Origin: a virus
Taxonomy: Duplodnaviria > Caudoviricetes
DNA length: 64,000 nucleotides
Direction: 5' to 3' (one strand)
IMG/VR virus record: IMGVR_UViG_3300013121_000020
Location: 64,001 to 128,000 of that record
Below the pieces are notes generated by a model. It saw nothing but the letters and a program-made list of their open reading frames with translations, was not told the origin of the DNA and did no database searches. A program made the position numbers and the translations under genes. This document shows positions 2,913-57,358 of this stretch, one piece after another (position 1 is the stretch's first letter; each line of letters opens with the position of its first letter).

Positions 2913-3776
2913 GTGCCGATTCATGATTTTAATGCTGATATTAAATTACCCAATTCTCAAAGTCTGCCGCATGGGGCGGCAGAACTTCCTGCTGCACGTC
3001 AATTAAGTCACGCAGAAGGTGGTCGTATTAAGTTTGATGGATCTGACTCCATGTCATATCCATATCAACTTGAAGAATTTTTACAACCGGGTTTTCGTGC
3101 GCTTGATGATGCTATGAGGCAGTATTGGTCTGGTATCCGTGTTCCTACTAAAGATTCATATCGTTTTATGAGAGTAAAGGTGGCTGGTGGTGATAAAAGT
3201 CTGTTGTTGTGGGCTGATGATTTGAAGGAAGGTCGTGCAAGATTACCACTTGCAGCGTTGTCACGTGAGTCTCATGAATTTAATCCAGAGAAATTTTCAC
3301 CTGCTTATCACGCTATGACTGCGCGATATATCACAACTCGCGGCAACTTAGCTGCTAAGGTTTATCGTCCTGTTCCATTTTTGGTTGAATACAATTTAAC
3401 TATTTGGGCAGAACATAAGCGTGATGCTGAGTATATCCTATATCAAATTTTAACAAGATATAATCCACTTGCTGAATTTAGGATGTTTGATGGGAAACTT
3501 GAAGGCAATGTTCAATTACATTACGGTGGGTCACATGATGCTAGTGATAAAGAAGCTGGATATGATCAACACGCAAATGTACGATATGAGATTTCTACAA
3601 CAGCGGAAGCATGGCTACCTTTACCAGAAAAGATTGTACCAACTGTGATTGGCCGTATGACGGTACTTAAAGAAAGAGTTGGCGAGATCGCTACCGATCT
3701 ATTTTTAGCTTCTCGTGGATCTGGTAGATTTTCTGAGCCTATTCAAGACATAAATAAAGCTGAAAATGAAATATAA
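2913..3776 (+). CDS. tail terminator / sheath stabiliser, T4 gp15-like
   Basis: RLPLAALSR and RPVPFLVEYNLTIW..QILTRYNP motifs typical of gp15-like proteins; gene order. Confidence 0.75.
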   Translation: MPIHDFNADIKLPNSQSLPHGAAELPAARQLSHAEGGRIKFDGSDSMSYPYQLEEFLQPGFRALDDAMRQYWSGIRVPTKDSYRFMRVKVAGGDKSLLLWADDLKEGRARLPLAALSRESHEFNPEKFSPAYHAMTARYITTRGNLAAKVYRPVPFLVEYNLTIWAEHKRDAEYILYQILTRYNPLAEFRMFDGKLEGNVQLHYGGSHDASDKEAGYDQHANVRYEISTTAEAWLPLPEKIVPTVIGRMTVLKERVGEIATDLFLASRGSGRFSEPIQDINKAENEI

Positions 3777-55729: not shown

Positions 55730-56104
55730 ATGGTCAATTATCGTCCTAGTGTTTGTTATCAAACTGATGCATCTCATGTGCATTATAATATAATAATGCA
55801 AGTTGAGAAACCATTATCTGATATTCAACGTTTGCGAGAGATTGCACGAAGAGTTGGTGGAGCAACTGCTGGGCAAGTAATAGAAATTCTTTATGATAAG
55901 ATTGCAATTGGGGTTGATCTTACGCGATATGAGATAGTTAGAATTCAAAAAGAATCTTTACCAACACATCAAGTTTGCCACAAAGGTGAAGATGAGTCAC
56001 CATCTATAGATTGGAATGGGTGGTTATTTATCGCTGGTTCTGTCGGTATTGATGATAAGCCACCAGCCAATGTTAGAGTTGCTTATATTGATCACCATGC
56101 CTGA
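55730..56104 (+). CDS. hypothetical protein
   Basis: ORF present; true start may be ATG 55796. Confidence 0.5.
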   Translation: MVNYRPSVCYQTDASHVHYNIIMQVEKPLSDIQRLREIARRVGGATAGQVIEILYDKIAIGVDLTRYEIVRIQKESLPTHQVCHKGEDESPSIDWNGWLFIAGSVGIDDKPPANVRVAYIDHHA

Positions 56105-56429
56105 TATATTATCTGTATTAGCGGATTGGTTTTTATCAGAAAATGGCGATTATTATATTGGCCCATGTATTAATGAACGCGTCGTCTTTAAACACAAACA
56201 TAATCATAATTTGTGGATATCATTTGAATGGTGGTGTGGTAGGATTGTGTTAAATGGGATAATTAGTTCTTGTAATAAAGGTCAATTATTTAGCAGCAGT
56301 TGTTGGGGTGGATCATATGTTATTAGTGATCAAAAATCGTTTGATAAATTTTGCTCTACAACTACATGGTTAGTTAATGAGCAAATAAAATTGAAGGATA
56401 AAAAGTTTTACTGTGGCCGTTTAGTTTAA
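56097..56429 (+). CDS. hypothetical protein
   Basis: ATG overlaps the previous stop. Confidence 0.45.
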   Translation: MPDILSVLADWFLSENGDYYIGPCINERVVFKHKHNHNLWISFEWWCGRIVLNGIISSCNKGQLFSSSCWGGSYVISDQKSFDKFCSTTTWLVNEQIKLKDKKFYCGRLV

Positions 56430-56584
56430 GCATAGGTTAAAAACGGCCAAACAACCTATGTAACCGTTTTCACATCATTCATCTCTTTGAAACGGTCCAA
56501 AAAGTTCGATGAATGTGGTCTCTATATTAGGTGATCCGATCTCTTGTGCTGTTCCGAGACCAAAAACAGCCGATAATCGGTCAC
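56414..56584 (-). ncRNA. candidate structured RNA of three tandem pseudoknots
   Basis: three interleaved stem pairs found by eye; G-U extensions exist only on the minus strand; GTATT motif 9 nt upstream of the first stem. Confidence 0.6.
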
Positions 56585-56588
56585 ATTC

Positions 56589-56942
56589 TTATAAATACAT
56601 AAGTGCGCGTGCCATGATTCGCATACGTCTACGTTCTAACTTCTGTTCTGATGTTGGCGTTGGACGTTTGTGTTTTTTGTTTGTTTTCACTGTTCCGTCT
56701 TTATACAATTTATACCAAAGTTGATTAGATTTAAAATATGCCATAACTGTTCCACAATGTATCCAACGAAAAGTTGGCGTATCCATCATTTCAATTATTT
56801 TAATATATTCTCTATGTTTTTGTGCAGCACCTATATGACCGTTTTCTTCTAAACAATCAGAAAAGCGCGCTCTAGTAACCAAATTGAGCGGATCATTTTG
56901 CAGTTGTTCCATCGCGCCTTTGTAGATTGCCATAATGGTCAT
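56589..56942 (-). CDS. protein with N-terminal TIGR02996-like domain
   Basis: LQNDPLNLVTRARFSDCLEENG resembles the P.D...RLVYADWLEE.G consensus. Confidence 0.55.
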   Translation of the reverse strand: MTIMAIYKGAMEQLQNDPLNLVTRARFSDCLEENGHIGAAQKHREYIKIIEMMDTPTFRWIHCGTVMAYFKSNQLWYKLYKDGTVKTNKKHKRPTPTSEQKLERRRMRIMARALMYL

Positions 56943-56961: not shown

Positions 56962-57246
56962 TTAGGTTGGTTTCCGTCCTACCACACTGCGGCAGGTTCG
57001 AACAGCGGGTAAACTATGCTTTCGAGATTCGATTGTGTGAAAAATAACAGTCCCCGAATCCAGCGAACGTGTGGTTACTTTTTGTGCGTTCATATCTTTT
57101 TCAGCCAGATCATGACGACCATTCGCAACTAGTTCGGCTTTTGCAGTGGTTATCGCTTTCGTCTTCGAAGTCGCCACCACGATGATCATGGCTCTTCGAT
57201 CATCGCTGAGAGCATCCGAAACCGAACAAACGTAGTAATGATCCAT
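56962..57246 (-). CDS. hypothetical protein
   Basis: ATG 57246 with GGAG SD; higher GC. Confidence 0.6.
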   Translation of the reverse strand: MDHYYVCSVSDALSDDRRAMIIVVATSKTKAITTAKAELVANGRHDLAEKDMNAQKVTTRSLDSGTVIFHTIESRKHSLPAVRTCRSVVGRKPT

Positions 57247-57358
57247 AGTGATTCTCCAGTTGGTGGTGGTCCGTACTACCACACTGTGATAGGCTCAAAC
57301 AGTTGGTAAATCTAGGAGTGCTGATCCGGTTCCAGTTTAAACCTTCTTAAGTGTGGTT

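Follow-up and report, generated by a model that had tools for sequence, protein, structure and literature searches.

The stretch of DNA analysed here, termed the window, comprises 64,000 nucleotides (nt), bases 64001-128000 of a 354-kb, 98%-complete jumbo-phage genome in IMG/VR (record IMGVR_UViG_3300013121_000020; G000). At 56430-56588 a 159-nt gap separates two converging open reading frames (ORFs). The element found there is a folded RNA of ~175 nt, consisting of three pseudoknot units (A, B and C) on the minus strand. Unit A begins 4 nt past the stop codon of a gene for a protein of 117 amino acids (aa). At the other end, the 3' arm of the second stem and loop 3 of unit C overlap the final codons of the converging plus-strand ORF, whose last 16 nt, including the stop codon, lie within the unit. 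The RNA belongs to a new small RNA family of four known members, which is read in every case as the tail of the messenger RNA (mRNA) of one gene family.

Each unit is a hairpin whose apical loop pairs with residues just 3' of the hairpin, and only 0-2 nt lie between units. Read along the minus strand, the arms follow the order a b c b' a' c', d e f e' d' f' and g h g' h' (Table 1). A sequence-only reading of the locus had listed these pairings, and all of them are present on the minus strand; its description of three abutting pseudoknots in a structured minus-strand RNA, composed of units that are not sequence repeats, likewise holds. Tandem Repeats Finder detects no repeats, and unit-to-unit alignments (P 0.06-0.23) do not support an origin of the units by tandem duplication. 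Its statement that wobble extensions are G-U on the minus strand only is accurate in part: six are G-U on the minus strand, and three are on the plus strand. Unit C is the most compact 17-bp (base pair) H-type unit genome-wide and, under a pKiss-like energy rule with penalties modelled on the default values, reaches -17.1 kcal/mol compared to -12.0 for the best nested fold of the segment. The stable nested states of units A and B under this rule are the hairpin-only forms.

Table 1. Positions of the element and its helices, the flanking genes and the counterparts in relatives (window coordinates, except for the L102 entries; paired arms are given 5'/3')
Feature	Position	Strand	Description
Upstream gene	56589..56942	minus	117 aa; TAA stop at 56591-56589; from ORF list and translation
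Unit A	56516..56588	minus	Three-stem pseudoknot; conserved core
Unit A, outer stem a	56584-76/56540-31	minus	9 bp, bulged A56535
Unit A, internal loop	56575-71 opposite 56547-41	minus	UAUCG opposite ACAAGAG
Unit A, inner stem b	56570-65/56553-48	minus	6 Watson-Crick pairs plus 2 G-U
Unit A, helix c (apical loop-tail)	56562-56/56522-16	minus	7 Watson-Crick pairs
Unit B	56463..56515	minus	Bulged hairpin d+e with loop-tail helix f
Unit B, stem d	56515-08/56483-76	minus	8 Watson-Crick pairs
Unit B, stem e	56503-498/56489-84	minus	6 bp, 1 G-U
Unit B, helix f (loop-tail)	56496-90/56469-63	minus	7 Watson-Crick pairs; 6-nt linker before tail
Unit C	56414..56460	minus	Compact classical H-type pseudoknot; loops 3, 2, 8 nt
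Unit C, stem S1	56460-53/56438-31	minus	8 Watson-Crick pairs
Unit C, stem S2	56449-41/56422-14	minus	9 Watson-Crick pairs
U5 run	56398..56402	minus	11 nt past unit C; possible non-canonical 3' end signal
Converging orphan ORF	56016..56429	plus	137 aa; called as 110 aa in public collection
L102 unit B	2659-69/2685-95; 2677-83/2702-08		Hairpin; loop-tail helix; 6-nt linker as in window; unrelated sequence
L102 unit C	2714-22/2735-43; 2727-33/2753-59		Crossing stems; loops 4, 1, 9 nt
L102 terminator	2770-77/2792-99		Canonical, after unit C; plus U6
Stem b, window			GCUGUU/AACAGC
Stem b, L102			GCCGCG/CGCGGC
Stem b, L104			GUGUGGA/UCCACAC
Stem b, L105			GAUGCGU/ACGCAUC
Helix c, window			UGGUCUC/GAGACCA
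Helix c, L102			GGCAUCA/UGAUGCC
Helix c, L104			GUCCCUG/CAGGGAC
Helix c, L105			UUCCCGC/GCGGGAA
Outer stem a, window and L104			Present; each with a single bulged A in the 3' arm
Outer stem a, L105			Present
Outer stem a, L102			None evident
Protein relative P0005			99 aa; E 1.6e-9 (HMMER with 117-aa protein)
Protein relative P0006			131 aa; E 2.4e-5 (HMMER with 117-aa protein)
Protein relative P0007			130 aa; E 2.8e-4 (HMMER with 117-aa protein)

The array stands out from shuffled sequence: three disjoint H-type units occur in 0/5000 dinucleotide shuffles and two units in 3/5000. The three-unit cluster is unique within the 354-kb genome, and related phage loci totalling 1.12 Mb contain none. 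With the hairpins taken as given, P for the match of loop to flank is 0.007 (A), 0.003 (B) and 0.004 (C), and z = -6.9 results from a greedy helix sum in which stems are permitted to cross. By the nested minimum free energy (MFE) the element is only slightly out of the ordinary, with z = -2.7 for the minus and -2.4 for the plus strand. The crossing helices are missed by a two-level 'fold, mask, refold' heuristic, since the nested MFE structure consumes the competing bases; helix-based statistics were therefore used instead.

Counterparts of the RNA behind related genes

Direct searches place the element in no catalogued family. Megablast and blastn against GenBank phages give no match; Rfam 15 yields zero window matches at the gathering score and chance-level hits only at E<=10; and ARAGORN finds no transfer RNA (tRNA) or transfer-messenger RNA (tmRNA) in the window, which bears out the sequence-only reading in calling the RNA unannotated. 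BLAST and model searches of 26 related jumbo-phage records return chance matches only, and a covariance model built from the window element alone (R1) detects no second copy in the phage's own genome. The exact unit C pattern is absent from the metagenomes searched, and anchor-stem scans give about the chance number of hits, namely one Neisseria prophage family and coding-region coincidences. Back-translated peptide scans of both flanking ORFs in IMG/VR return nothing, and in a word-indexed search of 5.8 billion proteins each flanking ORF returned itself only; the flanking genes therefore first looked like orphans.

An exhaustive HMMER search of 1.84 billion representatives identifies three remote relatives of the 117-aa protein (P0005, P0006 and P0007), to which a profile search adds no others. 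The relatives are encoded on contigs L102 (= L103), L104 and L105, each with a gene-free gap behind the gene on its own strand (173, 276 and 195 nt, respectively). Once these homologues of the neighbouring protein were traced, the seemingly orphan RNA became testable by looking behind them. R1 matches all three gaps on the strand of the gene: L102 at 2600-2764 (E 0.0013, full length), L105 at 622-747 (E 0.025) and, for unit A only, L104 at 3430-3489 (E 0.6). Another model (R2), built from the window, L102 and L105 without L104, detects L104 at E 0.012. Rfam has no match to the homologous elements; the one match it gives is to a tRNA gene at a different position in L104 (2424-2497, plus strand; 71 bits), which lies amid small co-directional genes, a setting that fits a large-phage origin of this contig. 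The genes flanking the four cassettes are mutually unrelated.

Unit A is found in 4/4 sequences. In all four, a conserved UCG immediately precedes stem b and a conserved AC(A/U)(A)GAG immediately follows it; the stem is closed by G-C throughout, and the remaining positions differ by double changes. In a three-sequence alignment fitted to the model, every cell pairs (89/89) and both sides have changed in 23/38 pairs, a result that 0/500 shuffles match and for which slid controls pair at 28-45%. The four copies of unit A could not be usefully aligned with MAFFT, and a model alignment (A4) had spurious rows. The pseudoknot helices lie outside both models and were therefore assessed on their own. 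In the relatives, loop and adjacent flank share a 7-bp Watson-Crick match at five homologous sites (P 0.008-0.013 each, product 1.4e-10), and for the loop-tail match of unit A the P value is 0.009-0.013 in each homologue. The helices at homologous sites are unrelated in sequence. The search for homologues and covariation that the sequence-only reading called for is thus positive once the neighbouring protein is used as the guide.

L102 carries units A, B and C with the spacing logic of the window, and its unit A overlaps the final ~50 nt of the ORF. In L104 and L105, unit A is followed by other hairpins that end in terminator-like stems. Covariation thus supports the core pseudoknot, unit A, and the full triple array is predicted in two members of the family.

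The comparison also bears on a role at the DNA level (e.g., inverted repeats that bind proteins, an origin or a by-product of template switching) and on chance complementarity, which together are highly improbable. As perfect Watson-Crick helices, the long stems exist just as much in the DNA; CCGTTT/AAACGG recurs as a word at four places in alternating orientation, all within 85 nt; and the region lies within a hypervariable island of orphan genes, all of which would suit a DNA-level role. Five to nine distinct interleaved inverted repeats would demand as many binding proteins, however, and the homologues swap helix sequences wholesale yet keep the pairing, the spacing and the strand-specific loop geometry. 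Swapped helices with conserved pairing are the signature of selection on a single-stranded fold. For chance complementarity, the estimates fall below 1e-7.

Strand, transcription and 3' end

In 3/3 units, it is on the minus strand only that the short connecting loop, of 1-3 nt, takes the L1 position. The L1 loop of an H-type pseudoknot crosses the deep groove; on a plus-strand reading, 1-3 nt would have to bridge 7-9 bp of shallow groove. Folding, too, is better on the minus strand than on the plus strand, with sharper pair probabilities, and the homologous elements lie on the strand of their gene, which corresponds to the minus strand of the window. The phage promoter motif TT[TA]AC-N15/16-GCCACA is absent within about 130 nt upstream of the element, and a promoter scan finds no sigma-70-like site in the same interval. 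With no promoter upstream and the homologues on the strand of the gene, the element is therefore read as an mRNA 3' tail. Later processing of this tail into a separate RNA may occur.

The sequence-only reading, which also named a nuclease-resistant RNA as a candidate, had instead proposed a stand-alone small RNA (sRNA) with its own promoter. Such an sRNA would work in trans, either by decoying a host factor (S1, SmpB or the ribosome) or by mimicking an antitoxin. This explanation is improbable. The RNA is compact, highly structured and of sRNA size, many sRNAs derive from 3' untranslated regions (UTRs), and an AAGA is conserved 3-7 nt ahead of unit A in 3/4 sequences, as might suit an independent transcript. 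The start of the element just behind a stop codon, the overlap of the L102 element with the end of its ORF and the lack of a phage-type or sigma-70-like promoter argue against it. The GTATT put forward as the promoter is present at 56598-94 but falls in the final codons of the upstream ORF, is under-represented genome-wide, lacks statistical backing as a promoter and is absent ahead of the homologous elements. The 9-nt spacing that the sequence-only reading had noted before genes lacking a Shine-Dalgarno sequence recurs, for this motif and a start codon, in four genes only. Descent from tmRNA finds no support, there being no tRNA-like domain and no tag frame; the sequence-only reading had itself seen no tRNA-like arms or tag frame, and ARAGORN finds none. 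A ToxI-type antitoxin mimic likewise finds no support, as direct repeats and a toxin-family gene are both lacking and Rfam detects no ToxI features. Three other candidate promoters were considered and rejected: ATATAGAG; a plus-strand T4-type TATAAATA (56590-97), a sequence without enrichment in intergenic DNA; and a TTAAC-N18-GCCACA match inside unit C, the spacing of which is at background level.

A generic 3'-end element would stop or slow read-through between the converging units and block 3'-to-5' exonucleases, with no protein partnership. Such a function fits an array that starts 4 nt past the stop codon and fills a convergent gap devoid of the usual long perfect hairpin, and the co-occurrence of gene and RNA could reflect mere linkage by descent. 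Most other convergent gaps with room in this phage hold a single long perfect hairpin, and the gap studied here is exceptional. A canonical terminator nevertheless follows the array in L102, and terminator-like hairpins follow unit A in L104 and L105, so end protection is already supplied there. A stabiliser, moreover, needs no three-stem knot with unpaired letters conserved across proteins of 26-41% identity, and the window has no U-tract directly behind any stem. A purely generic 3'-end role is thus rather unlikely.

The hairpins of the other gaps are 11-22 bp long (G000 72414-72452, 126056-126086, 179583-179632, 215982-216168 and 309798-309962) and look like bidirectional terminators. The promoter-like motif TT[TA]AC-N15/16-GCCACA occurs in 59 copies genome-wide, 48 with a spacing of 15 and 11 with one of 16, against background numbers for all other spacings. 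It is positioned 25-45 nt ahead of start codons and clusters in a G+C-richer block of small plus-strand genes (220-277 kb of the record). A canonical copy, TTTAC-N15-GCCACA, lies at 55951-55982 (plus strand), just upstream of the converging ORF; a second in-window copy of the bipartite TT[TA]AC-N15-GCCACA motif lies at 55712-55681 (minus strand), and the variant TTTAC-N15-ATCACA precedes ORF 56962-57282 (minus strand). A G+C-rich region (G000 275262-275450 and 276239-276430), in which GCC repeats abound in the coding sequence and CACACTTCA follows G+C-rich hairpins, differs in composition from the remainder of the genome (38% G+C).

The linked protein and the probable role of the RNA

In the 117-aa protein, a helical N-terminus of putative, divergent TIGR02996 type is joined by a small beta unit and, at the C-terminus, by a helix rich in Lys and Arg. 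This type of N-terminus and the short beta unit are shared by the four family proteins, and the basic C-terminal helix is common to 3/4. The window protein has no TIGR02996 match at E<=1, two of its three homologues match (up to E 9.4e-12), and the TIGR02996 motif ADWLE-x-GH aligns as SDCLEENGH in the window protein. Fold searches with the protein reveal only a tetratricopeptide repeat (TPR)-like N-terminal hairpin and no informative match; its AlphaFold2 (AF2) model has a predicted local distance difference test (pLDDT) score of 73. No Pfam, PADLOC or NCBIfam toxin match is returned for the flanking proteins, and the 117-aa protein matches neither a ToxN/AbiQ nor a defence model.

The analysis establishes the fold of the RNA, its strand, its linkage to the gene and its place outside all catalogued families. 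The explanation that best accommodates these results is a conserved pseudoknot-rich 3' tail that is probably a recognition platform bound by the upstream protein, a joint reading for which the chances are about even. On this account, an RNA domain of ~175 nt would be transcribed from the minus strand as the 3' UTR of the 56589-56942 mRNA, in which the core three-stem unit A, with the internal-loop letters UCG and ACAAGAG, would precede the loop-to-tail pseudoknots B and C. Gene and RNA would be passed on together as a two-part cassette, the surrounding genes of which differ, and the RNA would serve as a specific recognition platform rather than as a plain end-protecting hairpin. The upstream protein, rich in Lys and Arg, would bind this RNA to regulate its own mRNA or to form a ribonucleoprotein.

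Several observations lead to this account. The three-stem knot and its fixed unpaired letters are kept while the helix sequences are replaced, which suggests recognition of a specific three-dimensional shape. As the fold is precise, includes conserved unpaired letters and is accompanied in the relatives by a separate terminator or terminator-like hairpin, it is most likely a recognition platform. The protein gene is the sole constant neighbour of the RNA and encodes an Arg/Lys-rich terminal helix; binding by the gene's own product, whether for autoregulation or in a ribonucleoprotein, is therefore preferred and is held with moderate confidence. The best guess is that the RNA is a specific partner or a regulatory RNA for the basic-tailed protein.

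A number of points weigh against this account. The binding is purely inferred, the L102 protein is without the basic tail yet its RNA is kept, and L104 and L105 are without units B and C. The pair counts come from an alignment of three rows that was fitted to the model, with four distinct sequences in all. Within the window, the simple energy rule favours the knot over nested alternatives in unit C alone; geometric reasoning indicates that the full helix sets of units A and B would need a kink at the internal loop or bulge for steric reasons; and two competing 7-bp helices can form (56470-64/56446-40 and 56588-82/56517-11). Co-transcription with the gene and the RNA ends are presumed, and a terminator scan of 56430-56588 finds no canonical terminator in the window copy.

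A bolder proposal, that the gene and its knotted tail constitute a new two-part protein-RNA module of large phages, is unlikely. Two versions fit the evidence: (i) the RNA may be an antidote, guide or scaffold for the TIGR02996-domain protein, a logic comparable to that of type III toxin-antitoxin systems although the sequence, order and architecture are unrelated; or (ii) the RNA may do in a prokaryotic setting what the pseudoknot stalk of plant viruses does, namely bring a translation factor to the mRNA 3' end. The fold outlasts complete turnover of its helix sequences and is tied to one small, otherwise unexplained TIGR02996-domain protein family. If the protein and RNA do cooperate, the pair would provide the first experimental handle on the TIGR02996 domain and could expose a new type of phage protein-RNA module.

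Known pseudoknot systems and genome setting

To our knowledge, arrays of tandem pseudoknots have been described in tmRNA and in the 3' UTRs of plant RNA viruses and not as the mRNA tail of a double-stranded DNA (dsDNA) phage. The nearest known layout is found in tobacco mosaic virus (TMV), where the upstream pseudoknot domain (UPD) of the 3' UTR binds eEF1A/GTP and matters for replication and translation (PMC4683447). Like the phage element, the UPD consists of three consecutive abutting pseudoknots in a 3' UTR behind the last ORF. The analogy is confined to layout, as one is from a plant RNA virus and the other from a dsDNA jumbo phage with no sequence relationship between them. The TMV units are small two-stem knots, whereas units A and B of the phage have an extra enclosing stem. 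In tobamoviruses the domain is succeeded by a tRNA-like structure that can be aminoacylated, and ARAGORN finds none behind the phage element. In tmRNA, a tRNA-like and an mRNA-like domain are joined by a variable number of pseudoknots (PMC1168896). The three abutting units resemble the pk2-pk4 run of tmRNA in layout only; by contrast, the phage element has neither the tRNA-like domain nor the tag frame, matches no Rfam or ARAGORN tmRNA model and is attached to a protein-coding mRNA.

ToxIN-type cassettes are borne by phages or mobile elements and consist of a small protein gene and a pseudoknot-forming RNA that are inherited together. The phage cassette of one small protein gene and a pseudoknot RNA is similar to these type III systems (ToxI, CptI and TenpI) in this respect. 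Type III antitoxins, however, are near-identical tandem direct repeats that lie upstream of the toxin gene and are cut by the toxin, whereas the phage units are not repeats, the RNA is downstream and the protein has no ToxN/AbiQ match. Flavivirus exonuclease-resistant RNAs (xrRNAs) and dumbbells also stand in tandem in the 3' UTR, and the loop of a hairpin or junction in each unit pairs just downstream. They differ in that a ring fold around the 5' end blocks a 5'-to-3' exonuclease; the phage element has no Rfam match.

The H-type pseudoknot of Neisseria filamentous prophages shares with unit C the 9-bp second stem (UGGCCGUUU/AAACGGCCA), the crossing layout, a CA after the stem and a nearby U-run, and differs in its first stem (AUUCAGGG/CCCUGAAU) and gene context. 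It lies upstream of a 74-aa coat-like gene, between this and an 89-aa ORF (e.g., L090 5451-5488, minus strand) on contigs L089, L090, L094, L095, L097, L100 and L101, has no Rfam match and is matched by R2 at E 0.05-0.45. The search that returned this knot forced the shared stem and its hit number equals the chance expectation, leaving homology unproven.

The phage has a T4-like capsid protein, and the closest GenBank relative is an uncultured 595-kb phage (39% identity). At 51-59 kb the window contains a hypervariable island, made up of orphan genes, that is not shared with 77 related jumbo-phage loci, retrieved via the major capsid protein at 70-90% identity. The converging ORF is not kept beside the homologous elements of the relatives. 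Downstream of the element, the ORF list has no ORF of at least 30 aa on the minus strand, and the gap itself includes no plausible small ORF, only GTG/TTG-started frames of 10-23 codons without an ATG or a ribosome-binding site. Past the TAA of the 117-aa ORF, 37 sense codons are open in frame (56477-56588, minus strand), and a GTG at 56584 starts a 20-codon frame (56522-56584, minus strand). Recoding was considered and rejected, the 37 open codons being unremarkable; both frames are judged incidental because they lack a slippery heptamer and a ribosome-binding site.

The converging ORF includes a TIGR02996-like word, LADWFLSENGD, and a textbook TIGR02996 N-terminus (LVLADWLEEQGDPRA) occurs in a 280-codon frame at about 238400-238600 of G000 (plus strand). 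The phage therefore encodes several proteins of this planctomycete-type domain.

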